From IMG/VR virus record IMGVR_UViG_3300018476_000015, positions 1 through 56,393 of that record: a stretch of 56,393 nucleotides of DNA, one strand, 5' to 3'. A program made the translations under genes and the position numbers. Shown piece by piece: positions 192-21,205 of this stretch (positions are counted from its first letter, which is position 1; every line of letters begins with the position of its first letter). Origin of the DNA: a virus. Its lineage: Duplodnaviria > Caudoviricetes. Under the pieces are notes generated by a model. The model was given only the letters and a program-made list of their open reading frames with translations, did no database searches and was not told the DNA's origin.

Positions 192-264
192 TTGCGGTTG
201 CACCCACGACCTGGTATACTCTCTTTGCGGGCGGGGACGTGCCCCGACCGCGAGGAGGGTGCCC
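192..264 (+). promoter_or_regulatory. Repeated promoter-hairpin element, copy 1
   Basis: TTGCGG 192-197, 17 bp, TATACT 215-220; stem-loop with GGG-ACGTG-CCC (loop 237-241); GAGGAGG before ATG 265. Confidence 0.85.
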
Positions 265-417
265 ATGGAATGCATCTGCTTGAAGTGCCTGGCCCGGGAG
301 GTGTCCTTCATCCACTTCACGGTGCGCATGAAGTCCGAGCGCCGGGCGCTGCGCCGCGCCGGCGAGGAGCGCGCCGCCGCCCTGGCCGCCTTGGTGCGCC
401 ACGAGGTGTACCGCTAA
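265..417 (+). CDS. Hypothetical protein (50 aa, CxCxxC N-terminus)
   Basis: SD GAGGAGG, ATG 265, directly after promoter element. Confidence 0.7.
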   Translation: MECICLKCLAREVSFIHFTVRMKSERRALRRAGEERAAALAALVRHEVYR

Positions 418-791
418 TGGCCCGCCACAAGAAGGTGGTCGAGCCCTCGGTCTACGTCTACTACAACGAGGCGGCCGAGACCTACTGGCTGATCGAGGAG
501 ACGCCCGAGCGCGCCGGCGGGCAGGGGCGCAGCTACCGCGAGGACGGCTTCCGCGTCCCCTTCGAGGAGCGGGGCGAGGAGGCGGCGTTCGCCCGCGCCG
601 CCCAGTGGCTGGGCTGCGACCGCTTCGACCTCGACATCGCCCACCTGGCCAACGACCCCGACCGCGAGGAGACGGACGCCTACGGCTCGCCCATCCCCCA
701 GGAGAACTACCGCTGCACCGTCGATGTCCGCAGCCAGGAGTTGACCGCCCACCTGGCCGAGATTGCCGCCCGGAAAGAGAGCAGCCGATGA
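417..791 (+). CDS. Hypothetical phage protein
   Basis: TAATG stop/start overlap; MARHKKVVEPSVYVYY…. Confidence 0.75.
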   Translation: MARHKKVVEPSVYVYYNEAAETYWLIEETPERAGGQGRSYREDGFRVPFEERGEEAAFARAAQWLGCDRFDLDIAHLANDPDREETDAYGSPIPQENYRCTVDVRSQELTAHLAEIAARKESSR

Positions 792-1339
792 CCGACACCA
801 CCACCGCCCGCAAGCACTACGTCGAGCCCGCCGGCACCGTCTACCCCGAGACCGAGTGGACCCCGCTCGACCCGAGCACCGACAACCACAAGGCCCTGCT
901 GGCCGAGTGGACGGACGCCGCGCGCAAGCGCTACGCCGAGCACCAGGGGCGCCGGGCCCAGGGCTCCCTGGCCATCAAGCTGGAGGCCGAGCGCACCCTG
1001 CGCCTGCTGTTCCTCGTGCGCTGCGAGCACCAGGACGCCAAGGACCTCCGGGCCCTGTGGGAGGAGAGCCGGGACAAGGTCGAGGGCGTCCGCCAGCAGC
1101 GCGACGAGGCGCAGCGCGAGCGCAACCGCCTGACCGAGCGCGTTGCCATCCTGGAGCAGTCCCTGGGCGAGGCCCTGGACGAGGTGGAGAAGCTGCGCCA
1201 GGCCGGCCGCGCCAACGCCGCCCTGGCCAAGGACCTGAGCACCGCCGGCAACGGGCTGGGCAAGCGCCTGGTGGCCCTGACCGAGGCCATCCTGGCCGCC
1301 GCCGACGAGCACGGCCTGAGAGAGGAAGCTGGAGCGTGA
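788..1339 (+). CDS. Coiled-coil hypothetical protein
   Basis: ATGA overlap; heptad-like E/R/L/A-rich C-terminal half. Confidence 0.75.
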   Translation: MTDTTTARKHYVEPAGTVYPETEWTPLDPSTDNHKALLAEWTDAARKRYAEHQGRRAQGSLAIKLEAERTLRLLFLVRCEHQDAKDLRALWEESRDKVEGVRQQRDEAQRERNRLTERVAILEQSLGEALDEVEKLRQAGRANAALAKDLSTAGNGLGKRLVALTEAILAAADEHGLREEAGA

Positions 1340-1554
1340 ACGAGGTAACCCTGCCCGACGAGTACACCGACGACCCGCCCGGGGTGGGGGTCAACGACCC
1401 CATCACCCTGCGCGACGCCCTGCGCCTGGCCGTGGCCGAGCGCGACAAGGCCATCGAGCGGGCCGAGCGCTGGGAGAAGGCCTACGGGCGCCTGGAGGCC
1501 AAGCTGGCCAACGCCCGGATCAAGACCCGAGCCCTCGCCGGCGCCCTGGACTAG
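1336..1554 (+). CDS. Small coiled-coil protein, paralogue of 8168..8413
   Basis: GTGA overlap; C-terminus RLEAKLANARIK shared with 8168..8413. Confidence 0.75.
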   Translation: MNEVTLPDEYTDDPPGVGVNDPITLRDALRLAVAERDKAIERAERWEKAYGRLEAKLANARIKTRALAGALD

Positions 1555-1569
1555 CCCCGTCCGCAGCCC

Positions 1570-1642
1570 TTGCGGTTCAACCCACGACTTGGTACACTTG
1601 GAGAGCCGGCGGGACGTGCCCGCCGGCGAAGGAGCAGGGCCC
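1570..1642 (+). promoter_or_regulatory. Repeated promoter-hairpin element, copy 2
   Basis: TTGCGG 1570-1575, 17 bp, TACACT 1593-1598; GCCGGCGGG-ACGTG-CCCGCCGGC; AAGGAG before ATG 1643. Confidence 0.85.
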
Positions 1643-1897
1643 ATGAGCGAGCGCAGCATCGACCCCGACGCCGGCATCGCGGACGACGACGTGCACACCC
1701 ACTACGAGGAGTTCGAGGACCTGGAGGCCGACCGCGCCGAGTGGGACGACGGCTCCGACGAGGGCGAGGACGACGACCTGCCGGTCTGCCCCGAGTGCCA
1801 CGGCTACCTGATCCCCCTGGGCAGCCTGGGGCGCGTCGACCACTTCCGCTGCCGCGCCTGCGGCGCCGATAGCTGCATCGTCCGGGGAGCCCGCTAG
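1643..1897 (+). CDS. Acidic protein with C-terminal zinc ribbon
   Basis: CPEC…CRAC; D/E-rich N-terminus. Confidence 0.75.
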   Translation: MSERSIDPDAGIADDDVHTHYEEFEDLEADRAEWDDGSDEGEDDDLPVCPECHGYLIPLGSLGRVDHFRCRACGADSCIVRGAR

Positions 1898-2370
1898 TGG
1901 CCTTTCGCTTCGCCCTCCCCACCCCCATCGGCACGCCGGTGCGCGTCTACCGCAACCTGCACCCCACCAAGCCCACCTGGTCGATCCAGGCCAAGGTGCG
2001 CATCCCCGGCACGCGGCGCCACACCTGGAAGGTGGTGGGCTGGTCGGACAACCTGGTGCTGGCCGACGCCGGCTTCCAGGTCTACGAGGCGGGGCTGCGC
2101 CGGGTCCTGGCCACCGGCGTCAAGAACGTGCACGCCTACGTCCTGGGCACCCTGGCCAAGGTGGGCTACCCCCTGGACGACGGGCTGGGGGTCTACGCCG
2201 ACCGGGTCAAGTACGACCCCCGCCGGCGCCTGCCCTACTTCTTCTCGCCGGCGTACCGGGACGTGCGCGTCGACGGCGCCCCCGGCGTCGTGCTGAACGA
2301 GCGCGGGGAGGTCTGGACGCGCCAGACCGCCCCCAGGATGATCGAGGAGGCCGCCCATGCCGAAGTTTGA
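1897..2370 (+). CDS. Conserved phage hypothetical protein
   Basis: TAGTG overlap; VRVYRNLH…WSIQ…G.RRV….VKNVHAYV.G…VKYDP pattern typical of a widespread small phage family. Confidence 0.75.
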   Translation: MAFRFALPTPIGTPVRVYRNLHPTKPTWSIQAKVRIPGTRRHTWKVVGWSDNLVLADAGFQVYEAGLRRVLATGVKNVHAYVLGTLAKVGYPLDDGLGVYADRVKYDPRRRLPYFFSPAYRDVRVDGAPGVVLNERGEVWTRQTAPRMIEEAAHAEV

Positions 2371-2617
2371 GGCCCAGGTCAGCGTGCAGATCACCCGCCA
2401 GTACGAGGTCGTGCTCCAGGTCGAGGCCCTCGATGAGGACGAGGCCCGGGACAAGCTGGAGCACGAGGCCCTGGGGATGAAGCAGCGCGACCTCGACCGC
2501 TTCGTCGGGGGGGCGACCAACCCCAGCAGCTACTACGACGGCGAGATGACCGTGCTCGACCACATCGGCCAGGTCGAGGAAGTGCCCGAGACCGAGGAGG
2601 AGACCGCCCATGAGTGA
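2357..2617 (+). CDS. Hypothetical protein
   Basis: SD GAGGAGG, ATG, GC3-rich. Confidence 0.75.
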   Translation: MPKFEAQVSVQITRQYEVVLQVEALDEDEARDKLEHEALGMKQRDLDRFVGGATNPSSYYDGEMTVLDHIGQVEEVPETEEETAHE

Positions 2618-3101
2618 CCCGAGCCAGTTCTACTACGCCAAGTTCGACCCCAAGCAGCGCCCCTTCGTCTACATCGTGGGGCCCGTCCCGCCGGCGGCCG
2701 GCTTCAACGGGGGCGGGCACCGGGCCCTCTCCCTGAGCGACCGCGACGCTAACAGCACCGACGACCTGGAGGCGCTGGCCCTCGCCGGGGTGCTGGACAC
2801 CGAGCCCGTGGTGTTCGACGGGGCGCCGCCCCAGCGCACGCCGCACCCCCGCGCCCACTACCACCGCTGGCGCCTCGGGAGCGACGAGTACGTCTACCAC
2901 GCCCACCCCGAGGAGCGGGACTTTCCGGGGCACAAGCACTTCCACCTGGACGGGCACGCCATGTACTACGTGCCCCTGGCCGCCGCCGATCCCCCGCCGG
3001 AGCCCACGAGCGAGCCGCCGGCCAGCGAGCCCGACGACGACGAGTGGTTCGTGCCGGGCCCCGGCGGCGGGTACCTCGGGGACCCCAGGGACCGCCGATG
3101 A
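2610..3101 (+). CDS. Hypothetical protein
   Basis: SD GAGGAG, ATG, GC3-rich. Confidence 0.75.
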   Translation: MSDPSQFYYAKFDPKQRPFVYIVGPVPPAAGFNGGGHRALSLSDRDANSTDDLEALALAGVLDTEPVVFDGAPPQRTPHPRAHYHRWRLGSDEYVYHAHPEERDFPGHKHFHLDGHAMYYVPLAAADPPPEPTSEPPASEPDDDEWFVPGPGGGYLGDPRDRR

Positions 3102-3316
3102 CCCGCGTCTCAGAGCAGCTCTGGGTCTGCCGGTGGCCGGCCGACGTGAACGACCTGGATTGGGCACTCTACGCGTTTGCGCCCGACCTGACGCCCAAGC
3201 AATTCGACGCGCTGCGCCGGATGCTGCTGGCCCTCGACCGGAGCGACGAACCGCCGCGCCGCCGGCGGGCGACCCGCACGCCCACCCCTACGGAGACGAA
3301 CGATGAAACGCAGTAG
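3098..3316 (+). CDS. Small hypothetical protein
   Basis: ATGA overlap with upstream gene; weaker codon bias. Confidence 0.55.
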   Translation: MTRVSEQLWVCRWPADVNDLDWALYAFAPDLTPKQFDALRRMLLALDRSDEPPRRRRATRTPTPTETNDETQ

Positions 3317-3396
3317 ACACCGGGGGCTCACCCGAAGCGCAGGCGCTGCGCCCCGCCGGCGCTTTACCAACCCGACCGAATGGACAGACGGTTGAT

Positions 3397-3425
3397 TTGC
3401 CGTTTGGACAACGTCATGCTACAGT
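3397..3425 (+). promoter_or_regulatory. Sigma70-type promoter without hairpin
   Basis: TTGCCG 3397-3402, 17 bp, TACAGT 3420-3425 with extended TG; GGAGG downstream. Confidence 0.55.
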
Positions 3426-3448
3426 CCTGAGTGGAGGTACCCGCCCAC

Positions 3449-4384
3449 ATGGCAATGACGCGAACCGCCCGCGACGCACCGCTGTACGCCGAGCCCACGC
3501 TCACCCTCGACCAGGCCGCGGCCGACCTGCGCGCCCTCGTGGAGGGGGAGCGGGCGCTGGCCACCCGCACCCGGAACAACCTCCTCGCCCAGGGGGACAT
3601 CGCGCTGGCCGCCGTGCCGTCCGGGGCCCTGGGGGCGCTGGCGGTGCTGGCCAAGCTGGCCGGCCTCGACGCCCAGACCCTGCAGCACCGCTGGGAGGTG
3701 GCCAGCTACTGGCCGGTCTCCGAGCGGGGCGACCGGCCCTGGGTCGTGCTGGAGACCCTGGTCACGGTGAAGGACCCGCAGGAGAACGCCCGGCTGCGGG
3801 CGCTCTTCGACGCGCCCAACCCCGACCACCCCCAGGGCAAGTGGACGCGCGCCGCCGTCCGGCGCGTCCGGGGCCAGATCGTGGGCCACACCGGCACGGC
3901 GGCGGACGTGGCCGACCTGCCCCTGGCCGAGAAGGTGGCCGCCGTCGCCCGCCTGGTGGCCGACCCGGCCGTGCGCGACGCCGTGGCGGTGCCCGGCTCC
4001 GAGGCCGGGCTGGCCATCAACCGCCTGTCCGCCGAGCGCAACGCCAAGCTGGACGAGGCCTTCCAGGCCCGGCGGATCGAGGTCGACACCTACCTGCTGG
4101 AGAACAGCCCCACCCACGAGGGGCTGGAGGCCGCCGCGGCGGTCAACGACCTGCTGGGGCTGGCCAACGCCTTCGCCCGGGGCGTGGGGCACGCCCTGGA
4201 GCGCATCCGCGCCCTGCACGGCGACGGGCCCCTGGCCCAGAACCTGTTCCTGCGCGACGCCAACGCCCGCGCCCGCGGCGCCGTCGACCAGATCGACGCC
4301 CTGCTCGCCACCGGCCGTCCCGGGGGCGACATCGACCGCTTCCTGCTGACCGTGCTGACCGAGTCGAAGGAGGACCGCCCGTAA
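3449..4384 (+). CDS. Hypothetical helical protein, possibly DUF6192-like
   Basis: SD GGAGG; RWEVASYWP…KWT…EKVAAVARL resembles DUF6192 from memory (unverified). Confidence 0.7.
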   Translation: MAMTRTARDAPLYAEPTLTLDQAAADLRALVEGERALATRTRNNLLAQGDIALAAVPSGALGALAVLAKLAGLDAQTLQHRWEVASYWPVSERGDRPWVVLETLVTVKDPQENARLRALFDAPNPDHPQGKWTRAAVRRVRGQIVGHTGTAADVADLPLAEKVAAVARLVADPAVRDAVAVPGSEAGLAINRLSAERNAKLDEAFQARRIEVDTYLLENSPTHEGLEAAAAVNDLLGLANAFARGVGHALERIRALHGDGPLAQNLFLRDANARARGAVDQIDALLATGRPGGDIDRFLLTVLTESKEDRP

Positions 4385-4785
4385 TGCGTATGCTCGACGC
4401 CATCCGCCTGGTCGTGCCCCACATCCCCTGGGGCATCACCGACTGGTCGCAGTGCCGGTACCGCGCCGACATCGCCGCCCGCGCCGGCGTCTCCATCGGC
4501 GTGCTCGACGCCGTGGAGCGCTCCATCCGGCGCGACCTGCCCCAGTTCCCGCTGGTCTCCCACAACGCCTTCGGGCTGGGCTTCTCCACCGAGCCGGCCA
4601 TGGTAGCCGACCACCTCCGGCGCCGGGCCGGCTACGTGCTCACCGTCCTGCGCGTCGAAGAGGCCAACCTCATGCGCCACATCGAGAGCCAGGCCCTGGG
4701 GCTCACCCTGCCCGAGCAGCGGGTGGTGAAGATGGCCTTCTCGAACGCCGTCACCGCCGGCTCGATGGTGGCCCTGCCCCGGTAG
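4384..4785 (+). CDS. Hypothetical protein, possible HTH
   Basis: TAATG overlap; YRADIAARAGVSIGVL. Confidence 0.7.
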   Translation: MRMLDAIRLVVPHIPWGITDWSQCRYRADIAARAGVSIGVLDAVERSIRRDLPQFPLVSHNAFGLGFSTEPAMVADHLRRRAGYVLTVLRVEEANLMRHIESQALGLTLPEQRVVKMAFSNAVTAGSMVALPR

Positions 4786-4818
4786 AATCGCCGGACTGCT
4801 TCTCTCTTTCCTCTTCTG

Positions 4819-4851
4819 CAGCGCCCCGGGTGGCCATCGCCCGGGGCGCTG
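4819..4851 (+). terminator. GC-rich intergenic stem-loop (possible terminator or processing site)
   Basis: CAGCGCCCCGGG-N9-CCCGGGGCGCTG; no clear U-tract. Confidence 0.45.
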
Positions 4852-4991
4852 TGATTCCCGGGCCTAACCTGGTACGGCCCCTGGTGGCCGCAAGGCGACG
4901 CCGCCCTGTAGCATGGCGCTGGCCGCCCGAACCTGCCCATGTCCGCACGTCCGCGCCCGCCCGGGCGGACCACGCCGAGGAGGGACGCCCC

Positions 4992-6462: not shown

Positions 6463-6463
6463 T

Positions 6464-6533
6464 TTGCGGTTCAGCCCACGACCTGATATACTCTAGAAGC
6501 CGGAGGGACGTGCCCCCGGCCCTGGAGGCGCCC
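6464..6533 (+). promoter_or_regulatory. Repeated promoter-hairpin element, copy 3
   Basis: TTGCGG 6464-6469, 17 bp, TATACT 6487-6492; GCCGG(A)GGG-ACGTG-CCCCCGGC; GGAGG. Confidence 0.85.
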
Positions 6534-6848
6534 ATGACCAGCACCACCAAGACCGTCAAGAACCCCTACGACGCGGCCTACTGGGACGCCCGGCGGGCCG
6601 AGCGCCTGGCCCAGGAGCGCGCCGACGCCGACGTGCACCGCGACATCGCCCTCGACTACGAGCGCCAGGCGATCCTGGCCGAGGCCGTCGAGCGCCTCGC
6701 CCGCCGGGTCGAGGCCGCCGACGCCCAGGTCGCCCAGTACGCCGCCGAGCGGGGCGTCAACCACGCCTACTACCGGGGCAAGGGCGAGGGGCTGGAGGTC
6801 GCCCTGGCCGTCCTGCGGGGCGTCATCACCGACCGGAGCGCCCGCTGA
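6534..6848 (+). CDS. Hypothetical protein
   Basis: SD GGAGG, ATG 6534. Confidence 0.75.
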   Translation: MTSTTKTVKNPYDAAYWDARRAERLAQERADADVHRDIALDYERQAILAEAVERLARRVEAADAQVAQYAAERGVNHAYYRGKGEGLEVALAVLRGVITDRSAR

Positions 6849-7156: not shown

Positions 7157-7165
7157 GCTCGAGGG

Positions 7166-7237
7166 TTGCGGTTCAACCCACGACCTGTTATACTCGGAGA
7201 GCGGGCGGGACGTGCCCCCCGCGCCACGAGGTCGCCC
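7166..7237 (+). promoter_or_regulatory. Repeated promoter-hairpin element, copy 4
   Basis: TTGCGG 7166-7171, 17 bp, TATACT 7189-7194; GCGGG(C)GGG-ACGTG-CCCCCCGC. Confidence 0.85.
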
Positions 7238-7441
7238 ATGACCAGCGCCACCCCGCCCACCCCCGAGCAGTTGCGCTGCGCGCACGACTGGCACCGCACG
7301 ACCGAGTACGCCCCGCGCCAGCGCAACCAGCCGGCGACACGCATCTACTTCCGCGACCTGTCCTTCTGCGCCAAGTGTGGGCTGGTCTCCCGGGGCCCGC
7401 TGTACCGGGCCCTCGCCCCCAAGCGCAAGGGGACCCGCTAG
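7238..7441 (+). CDS. Small Cys/His protein
   Basis: CxHxW…CxxCG; SD GAGG. Confidence 0.7.
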   Translation: MTSATPPTPEQLRCAHDWHRTTEYAPRQRNQPATRIYFRDLSFCAKCGLVSRGPLYRALAPKRKGTR

Positions 7442-8413: not shown

Positions 8414-8415
8414 AT

Positions 8416-8487
8416 TTGCGGTTCGACGCACGACCTGTTATACTCAAGAGGTCGGCGGGATGTGCCCGCCGGCCCCAGGAGGCGCCC
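8416..8487 (+). promoter_or_regulatory. Repeated promoter-hairpin element, copy 5
   Basis: TTGCGG 8416-8421, 17 bp, TATACT 8439-8444; GGTCGGCGGG-ATGTG-CCCGCCGGCC (one G-U pair); AGGAGG. Confidence 0.85.
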
Positions 8488-9510
8488 ATGACCAACTCCC
8501 GCAAGCCGGCCCCCCGCCCGACCCGCACCCGCACCGGCAAGGTGGCGGACGCCCGCCCGGTCTACGAGCGCGTCACCGACCGCATCATCGCCATGCTCGA
8601 CGCCGGCGTGGCGCCCTGGACGAAGCCCTGGACCTCCGGCGCCGCCGGCGCGGGCTACGTCGACGGGGCCCCGGCCTGGTTCCCCCGCAACGCGGTCTCG
8701 AAGAAGCCCTACCGCGGGATCAACGTCTGGCTCCTCCTGTCCGCCGAGGGCAGCTACACCGACAACCGCTGGGTCACCTTCAAGCAGGCCCTCGACCTGG
8801 GGGGCAACGTGCGCAAGGGCGAGAAGGGCACCCAGATCGTGCTGTGGCGCCCGACCGAGCGCACGGTGACCGACGCCAACGGCGACGAGCAGCGCAAGGG
8901 CTCCCTGTTCGCCACCACCTTCACCGTGTTCAACGTCGAGCAGTGCGACGGGCTGAAGCTGGCCAGCCTCACCCCCACCGAGGAGGAGGAGGTCACGCCC
9001 CCGACGAAGGAGGAGCGCCACCTGGAGGCCCAGGCCATCCTGGTCGCCTACCTGGACGGGGCCAACGGCGGGCCGGGCGGGATCGCCCACCACGGCGACC
9101 GCGCCTTCTACTCCCCGGACTTCGACGCCATCACCCTGCCCCCGGTCGTGGCCTTCAAGACCCTGGACGACTACTACACCACCGCGTTCCACGAGGCGGC
9201 GCACTCCACCGGCCACAAGTCGCGCCTCAACCGGGGCTTCGGGTCCACCTTCGGCAACCACGCCTACTCCCGCGAGGAGTTGGTCGCGGAGTTCACCGCC
9301 AGCTTCCTGGCCGCCGTCGCCGGCATCGAGCGCACCGTCGACAACAGCGCCAGCTACCTGCAGTCCTGGGCCAAGGCCCTGAAGGCCGACCCCAAGGCGC
9401 TCATCAGCGCCGCGAGCCAGGCCCAGAAGGCCGCCGACCTCATCCTCACCGCCGGCGTCGCCGCTGAGGAGGATGAGGTCGAGGCCGAGGCCGTGCTCGT
9501 CGCCGCGTGA
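8488..9510 (+). CDS. ardC: ArdC-family antirestriction protein (ssDNA-binding domain + zincin metallopeptidase)
   Basis: PWTKPW, PRNAVSKKPYRGIN, WVTFKQA..LGGNVRKGEKG, VFNVEQCDG, AFYSP..D.I.LP, HEAAHSTGH, YSREELVAE, SASYLQSW. Confidence 0.92.
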   Translation: MTNSRKPAPRPTRTRTGKVADARPVYERVTDRIIAMLDAGVAPWTKPWTSGAAGAGYVDGAPAWFPRNAVSKKPYRGINVWLLLSAEGSYTDNRWVTFKQALDLGGNVRKGEKGTQIVLWRPTERTVTDANGDEQRKGSLFATTFTVFNVEQCDGLKLASLTPTEEEEVTPPTKEERHLEAQAILVAYLDGANGGPGGIAHHGDRAFYSPDFDAITLPPVVAFKTLDDYYTTAFHEAAHSTGHKSRLNRGFGSTFGNHAYSREELVAEFTASFLAAVAGIERTVDNSASYLQSWAKALKADPKALISAASQAQKAADLILTAGVAAEEDEVEAEAVLVAA

Positions 9511-9511
9511 T

Positions 9512-9590
9512 TTGCGGTTCGATGCTCGACATGGTATACTCTAGAAGTCGAGGGGATGTGCCCCTCGCGCGAGACCCGGAGGCACCGCCC
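9512..9590 (+). promoter_or_regulatory. Repeated promoter-hairpin element, copy 6
   Basis: TTGCGG 9512-9517, 17 bp, TATACT 9535-9540; CGAGGGG-ATGTG-CCCCTCG; GGAGG. Confidence 0.85.
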
Positions 9591-9986
9591 ATGAACAACC
9601 TCTACCGCGGACCCAACGCCCCCCGCCCGACCGCCGAGCGCCTGGCCCAGTGGGAGCACGAGGCGGCCTTCATCTACCGCGCCCAGGTGCTGGAGCGCCT
9701 CAGCACCCGCCCCCTGGCCCGGGAGACCCAGAAGGACGTGGACCACGCCACCCGCATCCTGGCCCTGGTGGCCGAGGTCGACCGCCTGCGGGTCGAGTTG
9801 TCCGTCTCCGAGGCCAACCGGCGCGACCAGGAGGGCACGGTCGCCGGCCTGCTGGGCTCCCTGAAGGAGATGGGGGCCGACCTGGCCGAGGCCGAGGGCG
9901 CCCTGGCGAAGAGCAACGAGCAGCGCGACGACGCGATTGCCAAGCTGAAGGCCATCGCCGGCGTGCTCTACGGGGAGGGGCGCTAA
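9591..9986 (+). CDS. Coiled-coil hypothetical protein
   Basis: SD GGAGG; LALVAEVDRLR motif. Confidence 0.75.
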   Translation: MNNLYRGPNAPRPTAERLAQWEHEAAFIYRAQVLERLSTRPLARETQKDVDHATRILALVAEVDRLRVELSVSEANRRDQEGTVAGLLGSLKEMGADLAEAEGALAKSNEQRDDAIAKLKAIAGVLYGEGR

Positions 9987-10446: not shown

Positions 10447-10458
10447 GAGGAACCGCCC

Positions 10459-10990: not shown

Positions 10991-11001
10991 TAACACACGC
11001 C

Positions 11002-12149: not shown

Positions 12150-12157
12150 TTTCCATT

Positions 12158-13508: not shown

Positions 13509-14820
13509 CGTACTCCCCACGAACGAGGAGGCCGAGCGCAACCTGCTCGGGGCCTGCCTGCTGCACCACGCCGTGTTCGAGACCATCGGGCGCTTCTGCG
13601 CCCGGCACGACTTCTCCCGGGAGGCGCACCGCCAGGTCTGGGACGCCTTCGTCCACCAGCAGGAGACCGGAGGGCACCCGGACTGGGTCACCCTGCCCGA
13701 GGCCTTGCGCGCCGTGGGAGTGACCAACCAGGAGCAGATCGACCACCTCTGGCGCGACACCGGCGACTGGCGCATCGGCTGCTCGACCTACGACTACGTG
13801 GCCATCACCGAGTGGGCCAGGACCGTCGAGGCCCTGGGCGTGCGCCGGCGCCTGATCGGCGTGTCCGCCCGGATGGCCGAGGCCGGCTACGACGAGACCG
13901 ACACCGACGAGGCGGTGCGCAAGGCCTACCAGGCCCTGGGGGACGCCACGGAACGCCGGGGCCCCACCGGGGACGTGACCCTGGCCGAGACCACCGACGC
14001 GCTCTTCGACCGGCTCACCGGCGGGGAGACGGAGAAGGGGCTGATGACCGGGCTGCCCCACCTCGACGCCGCCACCAGCGGGCTGCGCCCCGGGGAGTTG
14101 ACGATCCTGGCCGCCCGCACCGCCCACGGCAAGACCGCCCTGGCCCTGCAGGTCGCCCGGAAGATCGCCGGCCTGGACACGAGCGTGGCCTACCTCAGCC
14201 TGGAGATGGACGCCGACTCGCTTACCGAGCGCCTGGTGAGCACCGAGGCCGGGCTGCCCATCCGGGACATCCTGGAGGGGGGCGGGCCCGATGACGGCGT
14301 GGCCCGGATCACCGACGCCATCGGCGCCCTGCACGGCCTGCCGATCACCTTCTCCGTCGCGCCGGCGACCACCCTGCCCGAGGTGAAGCGCACCGTCGCC
14401 CGGTGGGCGGACATGGGGCTGTGCAACCTGCTGGTCGTGGACTACCTGCAACTGGTGGGGATGGGGCGCGCCGTGGGCAACCGCGCCTACGAGGTGGGGG
14501 CGGTGGCCCAGGCCCTGCGCGACCTGGCCCAGCAGTACCGAATCCACATCTTCGCCCTGGCCCAACTCAGCCGGGCCGTCGAGGCCCGCCCCGACCCCAC
14601 CCCGGTGCTCTCGGACCTCCGGGAGAGCGGGGGCCTGGAGCAGGCCGCCGACTCTGTCTGGCTGCTCTGGCGCCCGGAGTTGTTCACCCGCTCCCCCAAC
14701 GACGCCGGCGTCGCCTTCGTCCGCCTGGCCAAGAACCGCTCGGGCCCGCTGACCACCGAGCCCCTGCAGTTCGACGCCCCCACCACCCGCTTCGGGCTGC
14801 TGAGCACCCGCGAGGAATGA
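13495..14820 (+). CDS. dnaB: Replicative DNA helicase, DnaB family
   Basis: AERNLLGACL, ILAARTAHGKT (Walker A), SLEM, VVDYLQL, LAQLSR, P.LSDLRESG.LEQAAD, AKNRSG. Confidence 0.95.
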   Translation: MTTVDVLPTNEEAERNLLGACLLHHAVFETIGRFCARHDFSREAHRQVWDAFVHQQETGGHPDWVTLPEALRAVGVTNQEQIDHLWRDTGDWRIGCSTYDYVAITEWARTVEALGVRRRLIGVSARMAEAGYDETDTDEAVRKAYQALGDATERRGPTGDVTLAETTDALFDRLTGGETEKGLMTGLPHLDAATSGLRPGELTILAARTAHGKTALALQVARKIAGLDTSVAYLSLEMDADSLTERLVSTEAGLPIRDILEGGGPDDGVARITDAIGALHGLPITFSVAPATTLPEVKRTVARWADMGLCNLLVVDYLQLVGMGRAVGNRAYEVGAVAQALRDLAQQYRIHIFALAQLSRAVEARPDPTPVLSDLRESGGLEQAADSVWLLWRPELFTRSPNDAGVAFVRLAKNRSGPLTTEPLQFDAPTTRFGLLSTREE

Positions 14821-14896
14821 CGCTCAATCCACGAGTGTGCTATACTGTGAGTCCCGGCGGGATGTGCCCGCCGGCGCCGAGATGGAGGACCCGCCC
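14817..14896 (+). promoter_or_regulatory. Repeated promoter-hairpin element, copy 7 (degenerate -35)
   Basis: TG-C-TATACT 14841-14846; CCGGCGGG-ATGTG-CCCGCCGG; GGAGG. Confidence 0.75.
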
Positions 14897-15100
14897 ATGG
14901 TGATGAGCAGAGCCAAGCGCGCCGCGGGGCGCGCCGAGCAGCAGGAGCAGCACCGCGCCCTGGCGGCGCTGGTGGTGCAGCAGCGGGCCGAGCGCCCGAA
15001 GGACCCGAAGCCCGTCGCCGTGGCGACGCCGGCGCGCCGGCCGGCCCGGCGCAAGAGCAGCGGTGGCCGTGGCCAGCGGAGGCGTCCCTTTGGTCGCTAG
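14897..15100 (+). CDS. Small basic protein
   Basis: SD GGAGG, ATG 14897; R/K-rich. Confidence 0.6.
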   Translation: MVMSRAKRAAGRAEQQEQHRALAALVVQQRAERPKDPKPVAVATPARRPARRKSSGGRGQRRRPFGR

Positions 15101-15896: not shown

Positions 15897-17028
15897 GACG
15901 CCGGCGGCCGAACAACTCCCCCTGATCCCGGAGCGCCTGCCCACCCTGGGGGGGCTGCAGGACGTGCAACTCGACCACCTCCCCCACAACCAGGACCTGG
16001 ACGGCCCGCCCCCCAGCGCCCAACTGGTGGAGAGCATCCGCCGGTGGGGCGTGCTGGAGCCGGTGCTGGTGCGCGCCGTGGGCGGGTCGCTGAACCACGG
16101 CGACCCGGCCACGCTCATCTCCGGGCGCCGGCGGATCAAGGCCGTCCGGCTGCTCCGGGACGAGTACCGCGAGAAGGTGCGCAAGTTCAGCGAGGCCCAC
16201 CCGGGCGAGGTGCTGACCGAGGAGCGCATCCCCGGCTACCGCGCCGCCTACGAGCGCCTGCGGGACTTCCAACGGGTGCCCGTCCGGGTGGTCTCCGACC
16301 CCGAGGGGGTGCTGAACGACGGGCGCACCGAGGCCCTGCTGGTGGCCACCAACGCCGTGCGCACCGACAACCCGCAGGCCGACTTCCAGGCCCTGGCCCG
16401 ACTGCTCGACCGGCTGACGGCGGACGGCCTCTCCGAGAAGGCGTGCCTGACCGAGGCGTCCCGGGTGACCGGGCTGGCGGTGGGCACGGTCAAGCAACGT
16501 TTACGGCTGCTGCACCTGACCCCGGAGTTGCAGGACGACTTCCTGGCCGGCCGGCTGGGGTACACCGTCGCCCTGCACGCCAGCCGGCTCGACCCGGAGT
16601 CGCAGGGCGTGCTGGCCCGGAAGCTGGACGCCGGCGAGCGGGCCACCCTCGACCTGGTCAAGGACGCCAAGCGGGAGGCGGTGCGGGCGGTGCAGGTCGG
16701 GCTCTTCGACGGCCTGCCCGACGCGACCGATGCGCCCCAGGACCCCCGGGGGGCGCCCGGCCCGGCGCCCGACGCCCGGGGCCTGGCCGAGCGGGCCCAC
16801 CTGATGATCGAGCAACTCCGGGCCGTGAAGCTGCCCATCATGCAGGAGGCGGCGAGCCTGATGGCCGACCTGCTGGCGGACGTGGAGGGGCGCGACGCCC
16901 TGGCCTACGCCAACGTCGACCCGGACGCCCCGACCGCAGGCATCCCGCCCAACCTCGTGCTGGACATCGAGCCCGAGCCCGCCCCTGAGAAGCCCAAGCG
17001 GACGCGCCGCAAGAAGGTGACCGAATGA
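15886..17028 (+). CDS. ParB/Spo0J-like protein
   Basis: LVESIRRWGVLEPVLVR…LISGRRRIKA, N..R.D, HTH (GLAVGTVKQRLRLL.L.PELQ). Confidence 0.8.
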   Translation: MTTETPAAEQLPLIPERLPTLGGLQDVQLDHLPHNQDLDGPPPSAQLVESIRRWGVLEPVLVRAVGGSLNHGDPATLISGRRRIKAVRLLRDEYREKVRKFSEAHPGEVLTEERIPGYRAAYERLRDFQRVPVRVVSDPEGVLNDGRTEALLVATNAVRTDNPQADFQALARLLDRLTADGLSEKACLTEASRVTGLAVGTVKQRLRLLHLTPELQDDFLAGRLGYTVALHASRLDPESQGVLARKLDAGERATLDLVKDAKREAVRAVQVGLFDGLPDATDAPQDPRGAPGPAPDARGLAERAHLMIEQLRAVKLPIMQEAASLMADLLADVEGRDALAYANVDPDAPTAGIPPNLVLDIEPEPAPEKPKRTRRKKVTE

Positions 17029-17789
17029 CCACCACCGAGACCGAGACCGAGACCGACCCCCGCATCGACGCCGAGACCGGCGAGGTCTTCCACGACGAGG
17101 TGGAGGACTCGCCCGCCGCCGAGTCGTCCGTCGACTACGAGCGGATCAAGAAGTGGGTGATCCAGCAGTCCGGCAAAGACTTCATCCAGTACGCCGGGCT
17201 GCTCGACCTCCTGCACCAGGTGAGTCAGGGCGACTTCACCATCACCACGAAGCTGGAGCAGGCGCCGACCAAGGAGAACGGGGAGACCGCCATCGTCTCG
17301 GCCATCGCCTGCATCGGCACCAACGACCGCTGCGCCAGCGGACTTGGGGACGCCAACCCGGGCAACGTCAGCCGGGCCATGGCCCCCCACACGATTCGCA
17401 TGGCCGAGACTCGAGCCAAGGGGCGCGCCCTGCGGGACCTCTTAAATATCCCCCTGGTGACCGTCGAGGAGTTGGGGCCCCGGGGGAACGAGGCGGCCCA
17501 GCCCCGGATGGGCCCGCCCGCCGGCGACTACGACCGCGCCGCTCCGCGCCCGACGCAGAGCACCCCCGCCCCCGTCAACACGGACGGCCTGACCGTCGAG
17601 GGCCAGTGGTATTCCCGCGACCAAATCTGGGGCTTCTTCCAGCAGCGCCGGACGCAGATGCGGGAGCGCAACCTCAGCTTCCCCAGCCCGGCCTTGCAGC
17701 GCACCAGCCCCCTGCCCCAGATCGTGGAGCAGACCCGGCAGATGCGGATGGCCATCGCCGCCGACATCGCCAAGGCCAAGCCGGCGTGA
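17025..17789 (+). CDS. Rad52/Sak-like ssDNA annealing protein
   Basis: GKDFIQYAGLL…ASGLGDA.P.N…IRMAETRAKGRALR. Confidence 0.65.
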   Translation: MTTTETETETDPRIDAETGEVFHDEVEDSPAAESSVDYERIKKWVIQQSGKDFIQYAGLLDLLHQVSQGDFTITTKLEQAPTKENGETAIVSAIACIGTNDRCASGLGDANPGNVSRAMAPHTIRMAETRAKGRALRDLLNIPLVTVEELGPRGNEAAQPRMGPPAGDYDRAAPRPTQSTPAPVNTDGLTVEGQWYSRDQIWGFFQQRRTQMRERNLSFPSPALQRTSPLPQIVEQTRQMRMAIAADIAKAKPA

Positions 17790-18076
17790 GCCAAGTCGAC
17801 CGCATCATCCTGGAGGAGAAGATGTCCACCGTCTACCGGGCCGTCATCCACTGCGACCGCCGGGACTCCGGCAAGTGCCACGGCCTGATCGAGGTGAGCG
17901 CGTCGGGCCCCCACATCGCCCCCAACGCCGTCCACCGCGCCGCCCGGGACAAGGGGTGGACGCGGGGCTACCGGGCCAGCGGGACCGTCGACGTGTGCCC
18001 CGGTTGTCAAACTCCAGAGGAGCGGGCGATGATCCGCTCCGACGCCGTGGCCGACAAGGAGGCCGTGACCCCATGA
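17786..18076 (+). CDS. Zinc-binding hypothetical protein
   Basis: CD…C…GW…DVCPGC; GTGA overlap. Confidence 0.7.
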   Translation: MSQVDRIILEEKMSTVYRAVIHCDRRDSGKCHGLIEVSASGPHIAPNAVHRAARDKGWTRGYRASGTVDVCPGCQTPEERAMIRSDAVADKEAVTP

Positions 18077-18537
18077 GCGACACCATCGCCGCCCCGCCGG
18101 GCTGGTACTACTGCCGGATGAAGGAGGGGGATATGCACCTCGTGCGGTACCCCATCGCCGCCTTCCGGGTGGCCGAGGGCCTGCCGGCGACGCCCCTCAT
18201 CGCCAAGCCGGGGGAGCCCGGCCTGGTGCCCCCCACCCGGGAGGACGAGGCCGCCCTGGTGGGCCTGCTCCCGCCCGACCGGGAGTGGGCCAGCTACTTC
18301 GCCTCGGAGGACCTGCAGGACGCCGCCCGGCGCCTGTTCGTCTTCCTGCACCCCCGTCAGGCCGAGGACCTCCGCGCGGCCACCGTGGCCGAGGTGGAGA
18401 TGCCCGGGGTGGGCAAGGTGCCCGTCCGGGACGCCCGCCCGCCGGCGCAGCGCTCGCAGTCCGCCGACTGGATGAAGCGCGCCTGGGGCGACACCGCCCA
18501 GCCCCGCCTCGGGGGAGGCAGCCCGCCCACCGACTAG
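18073..18537 (+). CDS. Hypothetical protein
   Basis: ATGA overlap; SD AAGGAGG. Confidence 0.7.
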   Translation: MSDTIAAPPGWYYCRMKEGDMHLVRYPIAAFRVAEGLPATPLIAKPGEPGLVPPTREDEAALVGLLPPDREWASYFASEDLQDAARRLFVFLHPRQAEDLRAATVAEVEMPGVGKVPVRDARPPAQRSQSADWMKRAWGDTAQPRLGGGSPPTD

Positions 18538-18564
18538 CCCAGAACCGCCCAGGAGGGACGCCCC

Positions 18565-19497
18565 ATGGCCGTACAGGAACCGCCCGCCCGCGTGTCCGTC
18601 GACCCGCTGCCCGAGCCCCGACGCCCCGGGGTGCGCACCAAGCAGCGGGTGCTCCCCGCCCGCAGCCTGCGCCCGACCGACTACGGCCGCCCCATCCGCC
18701 CCCATTGGGTCACCCGCCTGGTGCGCGAGTGGGACAAGCGCAAGCAGGGCGTGCTCCTGGTGAGCCAGCGGGCCGACGACCGCTTCTACACCCTGACCGG
18801 CAACCACCGGGTGGCCGCCAAGCTGGCCACCGGCGAGACGGAATACGCCTTCGACTGCCTGGTCTACACCGGGCTCACCCTGGCCGAGGAGGCGGCCATC
18901 TACCTCTCCCAGGACTCGGAGACCCTGCGCCACACCGTGGCCGACGACTTCCCGGCCATGCTGCTGCGGGGCGACGAGACCGCCGCCGGCGTCGACCGGG
19001 TGGTGCGCTCGCTCGACCTGACCGTGGCCCGCTACTCCGGCGACGGCTGGGCCCCCCACCGGGTCCGGGCCGTGGGCGCCCTGCTCAGCGCCTACGACAC
19101 CTGTGGCGAGCAGCACCTGTACGACGCCCTGGCCATGATCCGCACCCTGTGGGGCGACCTGCAGATCAAGCTGGGCGGGCGGACGAAGAAGACCATCTAC
19201 TCCGAGGCGGTGATCGCCAGCCTGCCGGCCTTCTTCCGCCTGTACCCCGAGGCCGAGCGGAACTGGCTCGCCCACGCCATGGCCCGCGAGGGGCTCTCCG
19301 GCTTCGAGGAGCGCTGGATCGGGCACCGCACCGCCTCGAAGAGCCGGCCCCAGGGGGGCGTGGCCATCGTCTACGGCGTGCTCTCCTGGCTGGATATGTA
19401 CAACTACGGCCGGCGGGAGCAGAACCTGCTGGACGAGACGGTGGCCCGGCGGGCGTCCAAGATGCTCAAGCGCCGGCCACGCCGGGGGCCCCGATGA
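18565..19497 (+). CDS. ParB/Srx-like (DUF6551-like) domain protein, paralogue of 4992..6185
   Basis: YGRPIRPHWV..L..WD…G.LLVS.R.D.RFY..TGNHR…CLVYTGLTLAEEA. Confidence 0.75.
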   Translation: MAVQEPPARVSVDPLPEPRRPGVRTKQRVLPARSLRPTDYGRPIRPHWVTRLVREWDKRKQGVLLVSQRADDRFYTLTGNHRVAAKLATGETEYAFDCLVYTGLTLAEEAAIYLSQDSETLRHTVADDFPAMLLRGDETAAGVDRVVRSLDLTVARYSGDGWAPHRVRAVGALLSAYDTCGEQHLYDALAMIRTLWGDLQIKLGGRTKKTIYSEAVIASLPAFFRLYPEAERNWLAHAMAREGLSGFEERWIGHRTASKSRPQGGVAIVYGVLSWLDMYNYGRREQNLLDETVARRASKMLKRRPRRGPR

Positions 19498-20018
19498 GTG
19501 AGGTGCTGGACGACCTGGGCGACCCGGCCAGCCTGCTGCTGGCCCGGGAGGTGCGCCTGACCCGCAAGCCCCCCGCGGTGGTGCCCCCGGCGGTCTGCGC
19601 CCGGGGCCACGCCCTGGTGTGGCTCCTGGGCCCGGCGCAGCCCTTCTCCGAGGGGGAGGGCCTGGCCGCCTGCGACTGCTCCCTGCGGGGCGTCGAGGGC
19701 CGGCTGAAGAACGGCTCCCAGCCCACCCTGTGGCGCTGGGTGCCCGCCCGGCCCCGGGCGCTCAGCCCCATCTTCCCCAGCCAGAACCGGCTGGCCTTCG
19801 CCCTGGCCCTGCGCCTGCGGGCCACGATCATGGGCACCGCCGAGCCCCTGCACCCCGGGCTGGGGGACACCGCCCACCAGCGGGCCTACGTCAAGCTGCT
19901 GAGCGCCCAGGCGGCCCCGCTGGTCGAGGCCATGAAGCGGGCCCTGAACCCCAACAACGGGCGCACCGCGGGCAAGCAACGCAAGGTGCCCAAGGGCGCC
20001 ACCGAGATGGCGGAATGA
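19494..20018 (+). CDS. Hypothetical protein
   Basis: ATGA overlap; CARGH…CDC. Confidence 0.65.
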   Translation: MSEVLDDLGDPASLLLAREVRLTRKPPAVVPPAVCARGHALVWLLGPAQPFSEGEGLAACDCSLRGVEGRLKNGSQPTLWRWVPARPRALSPIFPSQNRLAFALALRLRATIMGTAEPLHPGLGDTAHQRAYVKLLSAQAAPLVEAMKRALNPNNGRTAGKQRKVPKGATEMAE

Positions 20019-20509
20019 GCGCTGCCCCGCGCCGCCGGCGGAAGGCCCCAGGAATCGCCTCTGTGAGCGCCACAGAGGTCGAGCAACTGGTCTGGTCGAC
20101 GTGGCGCGAGGCCGACCTGCTGACCTACGTGGAGCGCACCGCCCGGCTGCTGGGCTACCGGGCGTACCACACCACCTTCTCGATCAAGAGCGCGGCCGGC
20201 TTCCCCGACCTGGTGCTGACCAGCGCCGGGCGCCGGCGCACCGTCTACGCCGAACTCAAGCAGGAGGGCCTCTGGCCCACGGTGGGGCGCGTCCGCAAGG
20301 AGACCGGGCGCTGGATCGAGGGCCAGACCGACTGGCTGCGCGACCTGCAGGACGCCGGCAACGAGGTGTACCTGTGGTGGCCATCCGACGCCCAGGACAT
20401 CGCCCGCATCCTGGACGACCGGGGCCCCGCCTTCCTCGGCGTCGGAGGCGTGCGCTGCGTCGAGCGCCTGGAGACCTGGCTGGAGGCCAACCCGCCGGCG
20501 GACAGGTGA
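20015..20509 (+). CDS. VRR-NUC domain nuclease
   Basis: E.DL…A..LG..YHT…GFPDLVL…AELK…Q..WL..L…VYLWWPSD. Confidence 0.85.
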   Translation: MSAAPRRRRKAPGIASVSATEVEQLVWSTWREADLLTYVERTARLLGYRAYHTTFSIKSAAGFPDLVLTSAGRRRTVYAELKQEGLWPTVGRVRKETGRWIEGQTDWLRDLQDAGNEVYLWWPSDAQDIARILDDRGPAFLGVGGVRCVERLETWLEANPPADR

Positions 20510-20510
20510 T

Positions 20511-20589
20511 TTGCGGTTTGCTCCACGACCTGTTACAATAGAGAGGTCGGGGGGACGTGCCCCCCGCGGGACGACTGGAGGCACCGCCC
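20511..20589 (+). promoter_or_regulatory. Repeated promoter-hairpin element, copy 8
   Basis: TTGCGG 20511-20516, 17 bp, TACAAT 20534-20539; CGGGGGG-ACGTG-CCCCCCG; GGAGG. Confidence 0.85.
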
Positions 20590-21126
20590 ATGAGCAACCT
20601 CACCGCTGACCAGGTCGCCGGCCTCTTCGCGCAGCGCCTCCCGGAGACGGGCGGGTGGATCAGCGCCAAGCAGATCGAGTGGCTGCTGCGCACCGTCGCC
20701 GCCGAGAACCGCATCCCCCGCGGGCGCACCGCCTCGGGTGTCCTGGCGGACGGGCGCGAGTGGGTGGCCACCCAGTCCGGCAACGCCAACCGCGCCGGCA
20801 CCCTGCAGCTTGTCTCCGTCGCGGCGCGCGACGCCGACCGGGCCGCCGAGGCCGAGCGCCTGCGCTACGAGGCGGCCTGCCTCGCGGTCAACAACGAGGT
20901 GTCCGCCCTCCTGCTGGCCGGCAAGGTGGACGAGGTCCGGGCCCGGCTGGAGCGCTTCGCCGCCGACGAGGCGGCGCGCAAGGCCCCCGCCGCGCCGGCG
21001 TACCGCGTCTACGAGGACGGCTCCGACGACTACTGCGGGGAGGACGACCTGACCGCCCGGGCCATCGAGAACAGCAACGACTACTGGGCCTCGATGCAGA
21101 CCGCCCTGGACGAGGGCGAGCGCTAG
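20590..21126 (+). CDS. Hypothetical protein
   Basis: SD GGAGG; WISAKQIEWL. Confidence 0.75.
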   Translation: MSNLTADQVAGLFAQRLPETGGWISAKQIEWLLRTVAAENRIPRGRTASGVLADGREWVATQSGNANRAGTLQLVSVAARDADRAAEAERLRYEAACLAVNNEVSALLLAGKVDEVRARLERFAADEAARKAPAAPAYRVYEDGSDDYCGEDDLTARAIENSNDYWASMQTALDEGER

Positions 21127-21174
21127 ACCCGCCCCGTCCGCTGCCCGCCGGCGGGGTGCGCCGGACGTGCCGTT

Positions 21175-21205
21175 TGCTACACTAGCCACGAAGGGATGTG
21201 CCCTG
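21175..21205 (+). promoter_or_regulatory. Truncated promoter-hairpin element, copy 9
   Basis: TG-C-TACACT 21178-21183; AGGG-ATGTG-CCCT 21192-21204 abutting ATG 21206. Confidence 0.55.

Follow-up and report, generated by a model that had tools for sequence, protein, structure and literature searches.

The stretch of DNA analysed here (the window) is the whole of the IMG/VR virus record IMGVR_UViG_3300018476_000015, from an uncultured soil phage, 56,393 bases long with a G+C content of 73% and an estimated completeness of about half, and the element under study is a promoter-plus-hairpin cassette that recurs among its early genes. Genes lie on the plus strand from position 1 to about 23.6 kb and on the minus strand from there to the end. 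The plus-strand arm carries early and replication functions: an ArdC-like anti-restriction protein, three ParB/DUF6551-like proteins, a protein with an XRE-type helix-turn-helix (HTH), an O-like replication initiator, a DnaB helicase and many small proteins without a recognisable family. The minus-strand arm is structural, encoding the major capsid protein, a tail fibre and proteins of 947 amino acids (aa), 1533 aa (with an M23 peptidase) and, open-ended in the window, more than 3291 aa.

The core of the cassette, the exact 11-mer GGGAYGTGCCC, was found at positions 234, 1611, 6505, 7207, 8457, 9553, 14859, 20552 and 21193, always on the plus strand. These are the nine places at which the original prediction, made from the letters of this DNA, had put copies of a promoter joined to a hairpin. 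In 100 dinucleotide shuffles the 11-mer occurred 0.48 times on average and three times at most, and no shuffle reached nine. All nine copies are intergenic and lie within the 23.6-kb early arm. The promoter-side pattern TTGCGGTTN5CACGAC, with one mismatch allowed, was found seven times in the forward direction in the window, not once in reverse and not once in a reversed-pattern control. Eight copies are complete cassettes, and the ninth retains only an extended -10 and the core. The promoter TTGCGG-N17-TAYAMT proposed for seven copies was borne out as written. The proposal that the other two have nothing but an extended -10 needs two corrections: the extended -10 (TGnTAYAMT) is common to all nine, and the copy at 14817 also has a degenerate -35 (ATGACG) with a spacer of 18 nucleotides (nt).

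Copy 1 (192..267, plus strand, as for all copies) has its -35 at 192-197, its extended -10 at 212-220, a hairpin at about 227-251 and the ATG at 265; its core (234-244) lies 13 nt after the -10, its hairpin contains one G.A mismatch, its Shine-Dalgarno (SD) sequence is GAGGAGG, and the gene behind it encodes a Cys-rich protein of 50 aa. Copy 2 (1570..1645), with the -35 at 1570, the extended -10 at 1590-1598 (TGGTACACT) and the ATG at 1643, has a perfect 9-bp hairpin at 1605-1627, which folds at -21.8 kcal/mol and scores 39.8 bits in the covariance model described below. In copy 3 (6464..6536) the -35 at 6464 is followed by an extended -10 at 6484-6492, a hairpin with a bulged A at 6499-6520 and an ATG at 6534; its ortholog at L020:3042, in one of the related contigs introduced below, has an identical hairpin. 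Copy 4 (7166..7240; -35 at 7166, extended -10 at 7186-7194, hairpin with a bulged C at 7201-7222, ATG at 7238) heads the module 7166-8415, in place of which L020 has other DNA. Copy 5 (8416..8490) heads the ArdC-like anti-restriction gene and has its -35 at 8416, its extended -10 at 8436-8444, a 10-bp hairpin at 8450-8474 with a U.G pair in the stem and the loop AUGUG, and its ATG at 8488. Copy 6 (9512..9593) combines a -35 at 9512 and an extended -10 at 9532-9540 with a 7-bp hairpin at 9549-9567, whose outer stem is CGAG/CUCG and whose fold is -14.0 kcal/mol, and an ATG at 9591. Copy 7 (14817..14899), the one with ATGACG as its -35, has the extended -10 at 14838-14846, the hairpin at 14854-14874 and the ATG at 14897, and heads the gene for a very Arg-rich protein of 67 aa; copies of this kind in the relatives have TTGACG as the -35. 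Copy 8 (20511..20592) has the -35 at 20511, the extended -10 at 20531-20539 (TGTTACAAT), the hairpin at 20548-20566 and the ATG at 20590. As had been noted, several copies begin directly behind the upstream stop codon, at a distance of 1 nt (6464, 9512 and 20511) or 2 nt (8416), and in the copy at 14817 the stop codon of the DnaB gene overlaps the -35. Truncated copy 9 (21175..21208) consists of the extended -10 TGCTACACT at 21175-21183, the core at 21193-21203 and the ATG at 21206; the core follows the -10 by only 9 nt, there is almost no outer stem (fold -9.8 kcal/mol), an SD is lacking and the ATG lies 2 nt past the core. A second GGACGTGCC stands at 21163-21171 (plus strand), in the place expected for the -35 of this copy.

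Relatives carrying the repeat were found by exact-pattern scans, and the carriers are soil metagenome contigs. Contig G001 (46,947 bases) overlaps the window at both ends, L020 continues the right end of G001, and L022/L024 and L023 are further relatives; two more loci duplicate G001. This gives 21 distinct instances, nine in the window, four in G001, three in L020, three in L022/L024 and two in L023. All 21 (window, G001, L020, L022 and L023) are co-oriented with the downstream gene. When the window's late arm and the initial 40 kb of G001 were searched with a covariance model, no extra copy with E <0.2 came up.

The anatomy of the cassette was tallied after aligning every full copy of the window and the related contigs, 20 in all. 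Seventeen of them have TTGCGG as the -35. The spacer to the -10 contains a conserved CCACGAC block and is 17 nt long in 13 of the copies, 18 nt long in the other seven. TG-N-TA is invariant, making every copy an extended -10 promoter by its sequence, and the -10 hexamer is TATACT in 16 of the 20. Most copies (15) have 12 nt between the -10 and the core, while three have 13 nt and two have 11 nt. Counted in the window as the distance of the loop from the -10, previously put at 16-17 nt, this places the loop start at the 16th nt, with the exception of copy 1 (17th) and the truncated copy (13th). Promoters of the sigma-70 type begin transcription about 7 nt after the -10. In 18 of the 20 copies the seventh nt after the -10 is a G, and this conserved G, the predicted start, coincides with the foot of the stem, in keeping with the earlier proposal that the stem begins at about +1. 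Within the spacer, CACGAC is a near inverted repeat of GACGTG in the loop region, exact at L020:4497 (CACGTC), a match that at 4-6 nt is weak.

The start codon follows the core by 18-33 nt (2 nt in truncated copy 9) and is preceded by GGAGG and then a GCCC context. The variation in this distance makes the hairpin independent of the ribosome site. An SD together with GCCC-ATG is present in eight of the nine window copies; GCCC(N0-1)-ATG stands in front of eight of nine cassette genes; the remaining early genes have it in 6 of 34 cases and the late genes in none of 20. The cassette-less early genes concerned, six of the 34, have GGAGG-N3-6-GCCC-ATG/GTG (for example at 2357, 2610, 4992, 10459, 13068 and 18565). 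These may be cassette remnants or may represent an early-specific module of translation initiation.

The top of the hairpin consists of three G-C pairs closing the loop AYGUG (GGG/AYGUG/CCC), on a stem that in the complete cassettes of the window totals 7-10 bp. All 20 full copies fold into one shared hairpin with a 5-nt loop, at -14.0 to -25.4 kcal/mol for 35 nt. Below the top, an outer stem of 4-9 pairs differs in sequence among copies, and in about half of them a 1-nt bulge (C or A) sits directly under the GGG/CCC top. Ten of the 11 core positions (all three pairs of the top and every loop base but one) are identical in all 21 instances, whereas the promoter hexamers vary. The individual stems that had been quoted as different and yet complementary are correct, including the U.G pair at 8457.

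A covariance model was built from eight ungapped copies, and it recovered 17 of the 20 full copies at E <=0.036 and one new, promoter-less hairpin, giving an alignment of 18 rows; the full copies W234, L23_1368 and G1_42382 scored under the model threshold and are left out of this count. In the alignment 90.8% of the cells are paired, compared with 80.8% in shuffles, and none of 500 shuffles reached the observed value. Changes on both sides of a pair were seen at five of ten pairs, in 15 cells (again 0/500 shuffles), and slid controls paired in <=56% of cells. Run on the same rows without the stored structure, RNAalifold returned the same helix, with seven pairs of which three have double changes. 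The covariation proposed for the window therefore holds in this larger set of 18 copies from five contigs, and the covarying promoter-plus-hairpin repeat is confirmed as real. Rfam gave no match at E up to 1 on either strand of window 1-24000. The promoter-less hairpin, L022:2852-2880 (minus strand), has a 12-bp stem and the loop UCGUG in place of AYGUG; it sits 5 nt past a stop codon and ahead of a ribosome site of the cassette type, so the hairpin can exist apart from the promoter.

No terminator-like site was found on the plus strand between positions 1 and 20000. With four cassettes abutting stop codons as well, there is probably read-through from unit to unit, which would place the hairpin internally in some transcripts and at the 5' end of others. 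Hairpin-less promoters of the sigma-A type are also present in the early arm. The extended -10 promoter at 3397-3425 (plus strand) leads through a short leader to the gene of a DUF6192/ParB-like protein (ATG 3449), and that at 10951-10979 (plus strand), which shares the CCACG spacer block, leads in the same way to the gene of the XRE-type HTH protein (ATG 11002). A leftward promoter of G001 at 40494 (sigma-A-type, TTGGCC ... TGGTACTCT) likewise has a short, plain leader. The hairpin is thus an addition specific to one class of promoter and not a general trait of the leaders of this phage. A calibration of start sites on the seemingly leaderless genes at 3431 and 10984 was dropped, since an SD-preceded ATG lies a few codons into each (3449 and 11002), which is also where the Atlas records begin.

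In our judgement the chances are about even that the repeat is a portable early-expression cassette: its transcripts would start with a hairpin that protects them and is also recognised by its sequence, and its conserved DNA would act as a patch for recombination. The host polymerase with its principal sigma factor (sigma-A) would bind the near-consensus promoter (TTGCGG, a 17-18 nt spacer and the extended -10 TGnTATACT) and would start at the conserved G seven nt after the -10. Each early transcript would then carry, starting no more than one or two bases from its 5' end, a GC-rich hairpin of 7-10 bp and invariant top, and a strong ribosome site (GGAGG ... GCCC-AUG) would follow 18-33 nt downstream. 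As RNA, the hairpin may shield the 5' end against 5'-end-dependent decay. Its tip, being more conserved than the promoter hexamers, may serve as a common tag through which a putative sequence-specific factor co-regulates the stability, processing or translation of early mRNAs. In read-through transcripts the same hairpin would also stand internally, just ahead of each ribosome site. At the DNA level, the conserved sequence of about 75-100 bp would provide a patch of homology for the swapping of gene modules and cassette halves, either as a by-product or as a second function.

An action as RNA is favoured by the variable flanks, which stay complementary through changes on both sides, a property not required of a duplex protein site. 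It is further favoured by the asymmetric loop, strictly co-oriented with the genes, and by the promoter-less hairpin of L022, which retains a 12-bp stem. Several points weigh on the other side. The evidence as to strand is weak, with six U.G against three A.C cells overall and, among the outer pairs, four against none in the five that are well supported. It is the core that keeps a set distance from the -10 (12 +/- 1 nt), while the stem foot varies between 3 and 8 nt after it, an arrangement that a DNA site would fit equally. Truncated copy 9 keeps the 11-mer with hardly any stem, and sequence may therefore outweigh structure. The 18-row alignment was fitted to a model seeded from eight of its own rows, and its covarying cells are not independent events, since the copies are paralogues that exchange sequence. 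No RNA-binding family was among the Pfam and PHROGs results for 43 early proteins of the window and 19 proteins of G001. A search for a public RNA run holding this phage found none, and we infer promoter activity, the start site, transcription of the hairpin, its stabilising action as RNA and the existence of a reader.

A stronger form of the tag, which we offer tentatively, is that the tip is an RNA address label on every early operon, read by a phage protein (the early proteins that are small and basic or rich in Cys may include it), and so a switch for the whole early regulon. Such a label would permit regulon-wide switching by protection from a phage-induced RNase, by a timed shut-off of translation or by modification of the polymerase. 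It would amount to regulon-wide post-transcriptional control in an undescribed high-GC phage lineage, with the label doubling as a plug-in patch for genes. Should the hairpin prove to be a read RNA tag, it would define a cis-regulatory RNA motif that is new and has no counterpart in Rfam, and would give a phage an easy means of controlling all its early operons jointly.

The shielding role has a familiar counterpart. Stabilising stem-loops at the 5' end, such as the ompA-type leaders and the leaders of phage late genes, protect mRNA from 5'-end-dependent RNases, and they need the structure but not a particular loop. The present cassette resembles them in that a stable hairpin stands at the predicted 5' end of the transcript and the ribosome site behind it is single-stranded. 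It departs from them in that the loop and its closing pairs are more conserved than the promoter.

Recombination has left footprints at the cassettes. From the -35 to the 3' end of the hairpin, the cassette 192-267 is identical at 57 of 60 positions to the non-orthologous cassette L023:1368 and at 49 of 61 to its G001 ortholog, whereas the coding region behind it is identical at 65 of 66 positions to the G001 ortholog and at 28 of 74 to the L023 counterpart. The cassette is therefore a chimera, its promoter and hairpin matching L023:1368 and its coding region G001, with the crossover at the 3' end of the hairpin. In L020 other DNA stands in place of window 7166-8415, a stretch with one cassette and four genes, and homology returns exactly at 8416, the first base of the next cassette. 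The comparison of relatives for gain and loss bounded by the element, which the original prediction had called for, thus gave direct evidence for its idea of a recombination handle. Other mosaic joints between the relatives lie at plain gene boundaries and not at cassettes, so the cassettes are one exchange site among several.

One further promoter may belong to this history. At 36724..36753 on the plus strand, in the late arm just downstream of the major capsid gene, stands a cassette-type promoter without the canonical hairpin top (TTGCGGTT, the spacer block CTCGAGCC and TGGTATACT), which is related by sequence to the cassette promoters. It points antisense into the capsid gene, runs into the hairpin at the 3' end of that gene and has no counterpart in G001. 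It could be an antisense promoter acting against the late mRNA, or a relic of recombination.

The closest described system is that of the promoter-early stem-loop (PeSL) cassettes of T4-type phages, to which the original prediction had pointed, and by analogy the present cassette is PeSL-like. PeSL cassettes of T4-type phages are also the subject of Comeau et al. (2014; PMC4122927). In the account of Arbiol et al. (2010), a PeSL joins a strong sigma-70-like early promoter to a stem-loop with G and C runs and extends from a stop codon to the SD and ATG (PMC2839356). The stem-loops are there divided into five subclasses, lie mostly within or upstream of the promoter and terminate incoming transcription; copies recombine, producing chimeric cassettes and the gain or loss of modules, with crossovers between the -10 and the ATG and inside the loop (PMC2839356). 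Measured against that description, the present repeat likewise joins an early sigma-70-like promoter (a call resting on sequence, conserved in 20 of 20 copies) to a stem-loop of a G run and a C run. Its copies abut stop codons, four at 1-2 nt and one overlapping, and extend to the SD and ATG. They are many and co-oriented, lie in the part of the genome that does not encode structural proteins and head small genes of unassigned function, and they too recombine, with the crossover here at the 3' end of the hairpin. The analogy is therefore apt, and it has limits. Here, unlike in the PeSLs as described, the hairpin always follows the -10 by 12 +/- 1 nt and so would be transcribed from its own promoter, has no T-run, and has an invariant loop with three invariant closing pairs. 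Host range and phage lineage also differ, and there is no sequence similarity to the PeSLs. The principle of a promoter plus stem-loop that both expresses and shuffles accessory genes would then not be peculiar to AT-rich T4-like phages of Gram-negative hosts.

The principal rival to an expression cassette is an operator in duplex DNA; the two could coexist. On this account, which we regard as unlikely though deserving serious attention, the asymmetric 11-bp GGGAYGTGCCC, centred about 15 bp past the predicted start, would be bound by a phage regulator that blocks or roadblocks all early promoters in the manner of a stoperator. Candidates for the binder are the XRE-type HTH protein (ATG 11002-11721) and the DUF6192/ParB-like protein (ATG 3449-4384). 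Such an operator would account for an 11-mer that is invariant, in a single orientation in every copy and at a fixed distance of 12 +/- 1 nt from the -10 in 20 of 20 copies. It would also suit truncated copy 9, with its 11-mer without a stem and a further GGACGTGCC at its -35 position, and the two site-free early promoters at 3397-3425 and 10951-10979, which drive proteins of DNA-binding type as if the regulators escaped their own control. It leaves unexplained the complementary variable flanks, in which five of ten pairs change on both sides (0/500 shuffles), and the 12-bp stem of the promoter-less, loop-changed hairpin of L022. Nor did PHROGs and Pfam scans of the window and G001 proteins return an immunity repressor, an integrase or another lysogeny function, although the XRE-type HTH protein is present.

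The stoperators of cluster A mycobacteriophages, sites for the immunity repressor of a temperate phage, are described as likewise asymmetric, intergenic and one-way (PMC9283540; PMC3203893). The present motif shares with them, as there portrayed, its shortness, its asymmetry and invariance, its many intergenic copies in one orientation (9/9) and its setting in an actinophage-like genome. It differs in that its flanks covary as a stem and nearly all its copies are fused to promoters, whereas stoperators, in those descriptions, are plain duplex sites and mostly promoter-free. Two other mycobacteriophage repeats can be set beside it. The SAS/ESAS elements of cluster K have an SD-containing motif 3-7 bp from the start codon, in 11-19 one-way copies, and according to the authors the ESAS inverted repeats do not support RNA pairing (PMC3203893). 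Like them, the present repeat is asymmetric, framed by GGG...CCC and one-way, and it lies just upstream of gene starts in the half of the genome that is not structural; unlike them, at least as they are characterised there, it lies 18-33 nt from the start codon, is separate from the SD, is fused to a promoter and has flanks that covary. The 17-bp palindromes of cluster O are reported as invariant inverted repeats that are also found at deletion joints (PMC4351075). Keyword searches of open-access text, the only kind made, turned up no account of an actinobacteriophage repeat that joins a promoter to a 5' hairpin.

The remaining readings are all less likely: antitermination, insulation, a spread that is selfish and nothing more, and a hairpin promoter of the N4 type. 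In the lambda nut sites, boxB is a short GC stem with a 5-nt loop that is transcribed early and read by a small Arg-rich protein, and there are two copies; Arg-rich peptides are known as boxB readers. Processive antitermination, in which a boxB- or put-like RNA loads a factor onto the departing polymerase or itself modifies it, had been among the suggestions of the original prediction. We consider it improbable here. The likeness lies in a short GC stem with a 5-nt loop within the first 30 nt or so of each early transcript as predicted, in an invariant tip such as would be expected of a specific contact between RNA and protein, and in the very Arg-rich 67-aa protein behind the copy at 14859. 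The fit is nevertheless poor, as there is no second conserved (boxA-like) box between the hairpin and the ribosome site, and the plus strand from 1 to 20000 offers no terminator-like site to be overridden. Pfam and PHROGs scans detected no family like N, Q or Nun. With 9-11 promoters spaced 0.6-6 kb apart, where lambda has two nut copies, there would also be scant need for long-range read-through.

That the hairpin is an insulator or attenuator, stopping or damping transcription that enters from upstream units, is a reading to which we attach little probability. PeSL stem-loops do function as terminators in the account cited above (PMC2839356), and the present hairpins are stable and stand between modules that have no other terminator. 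Lying downstream of its own start, however, such a hairpin would halt its own transcripts equally, no copy is followed by a T-run, and an insulator would not need an invariant loop.

It is similarly improbable, and marginally the more so, that the cassette is mobile or recombining DNA and nothing else, spreading and being homogenised by recombination or gene conversion, with the hairpin as a cruciform or recombinase target and without a role as RNA. The chimeric cassette and the module swap bounded by a cassette speak for such a history, as does the antisense cassette-type promoter in the late arm of the window that G001 lacks, and the PeSL authors speculate in their paper that a GGGG...CCCC stem-loop is a target for recombination proteins (PMC2839356). 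Homogenisation alone would not hold differing stems complementary with only the tip invariant, though, and several mosaic breakpoints fall at ordinary gene boundaries. Expression is what the copies point to, being strictly co-oriented with genes and joined to a ribosome site.

The hairpin promoters of phage N4 have a 3-nt loop on the template strand. A single-stranded hairpin promoter of this type, used by a virion-carried RNA polymerase in the form of the giant virion protein, is hardly credible here: hairpin repeats do head the early genes and the giant protein has a weak match to an internal-virion-protein family, but sequence methods, the only ones applied, match that protein to no polymerase. 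Among PDB sequences its best hit is an enzyme of another kind (E 0.08), Pfam gives nothing but a TnsA-like nuclease domain, and PHROGs gives no polymerase either. The loop is of 5 nt on a stem of 7-10 bp, the template strand would have A.C mismatches where the inner stem has U.G pairs, and a near-consensus host promoter lies directly upstream of every full copy.

For annotation, the cassette flags operon starts and true start codons in a lineage of which about four-fifths of the early genes have no recognisable family. The combination of promoter, 5' hairpin and strong ribosome site is also a candidate for a compact expression part in high-GC bacteria.

The window and G001 together appear to span the whole genome, which we estimate at about 73 kb from their overlap, with a leftward late arm and a rightward early arm that would diverge from a single control region. 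This region is likely to be the back-to-back promoter pair at L028:494 (minus strand) and L028:524-566 (plus strand), equivalent to 40494 and 40524-40566 of G001, in which the first cassette of the early arm adjoins the leftward promoter. In the late arm, the 947-aa protein (39071-41914, minus strand), the 1533-aa protein with the M23 peptidase (41916-46517, minus strand) and the giant protein (46518-56393, minus strand; more than 3291 aa in the window and 3807 aa in G001), which has a TnsA-like nuclease domain besides its internal-virion-protein match, follow one another in a row. The three look like an ejection apparatus, as in a podovirus-like phage. ARAGORN called a tRNA-Pro(CGG) at 42898-42976 (plus strand), on the opposite strand inside the gene of the 1533-aa protein, which is probably a false call.

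The lineage is undescribed and lytic-looking. Megablast of window 1-23700 against GenBank phages returned nothing, the capsid protein and the helicase have <=34% identity to any named phage, and among the scanned proteins of the window and G001 neither a phage RNA polymerase nor a sigma factor had a PHROGs or Pfam match. A protein of the Mycobacterium-phage L5 gp82 family is present and the nearest protein clusters are mostly from Actinomycetota, which suggests an actinobacterial host.

Searches for further carriers in IMG/VR returned little beyond G001. A helicase-based locus search gave no relatives. A cassette scan with a fixed 12-nt gap gave five loci, three of them G001 and two AT-rich chance matches, and a promoter-only scan gave 61, three of them G001 and 58 with a G+C content of <=58%, which were treated as chance on composition alone. 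ArdC-based loci comprised 55 distant relatives (36-46% identity), and none of the ten with more than 60% G+C had a core match. A scan of a genome collection returned nine matches, compared with about 35 estimated for uniform base composition. The site in L031 was rejected, as it lies inside a coding region. In L035, L037 and L038, contigs of unrelated bacterial metagenome-assembled genomes, an extended -10 is followed after 12 nt by the same 11-mer with some flanking complementarity, and L035 also has an SD and an ATG 18 nt downstream. These are probably coincidences, since each has a single site and the genomes show no enrichment of the core over a reversed control.

Two candidates for further uses of the core within the window were also rejected. 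A decoy small RNA with CCGG-ACGUG-CCGG at 11789 (minus strand) was considered, but hairpins with such a loop outside the cassettes number six against about 3.5 expected, which is not significant. An excess of the 9-mer core outside the cassettes (seven against 2.7 expected) was set aside as well, four of the seven lying inside genes, where GAC-GTG-CCC are favoured codons. Finally, the 335-nt gap between the genes of the XRE-type HTH protein and the O-like initiator holds a small leftward unit at 11823-11716 (minus strand), in which the CCGG-ACGUG-CCGG just mentioned lies. It has an extended -10-like TGATAGGAT, followed after about 60-100 nt by two tandem T-run terminators (11768-11741 and 11747-11726), and a fold z-score of -3.1, in a position that we take to be reminiscent of the lambda oop RNA.

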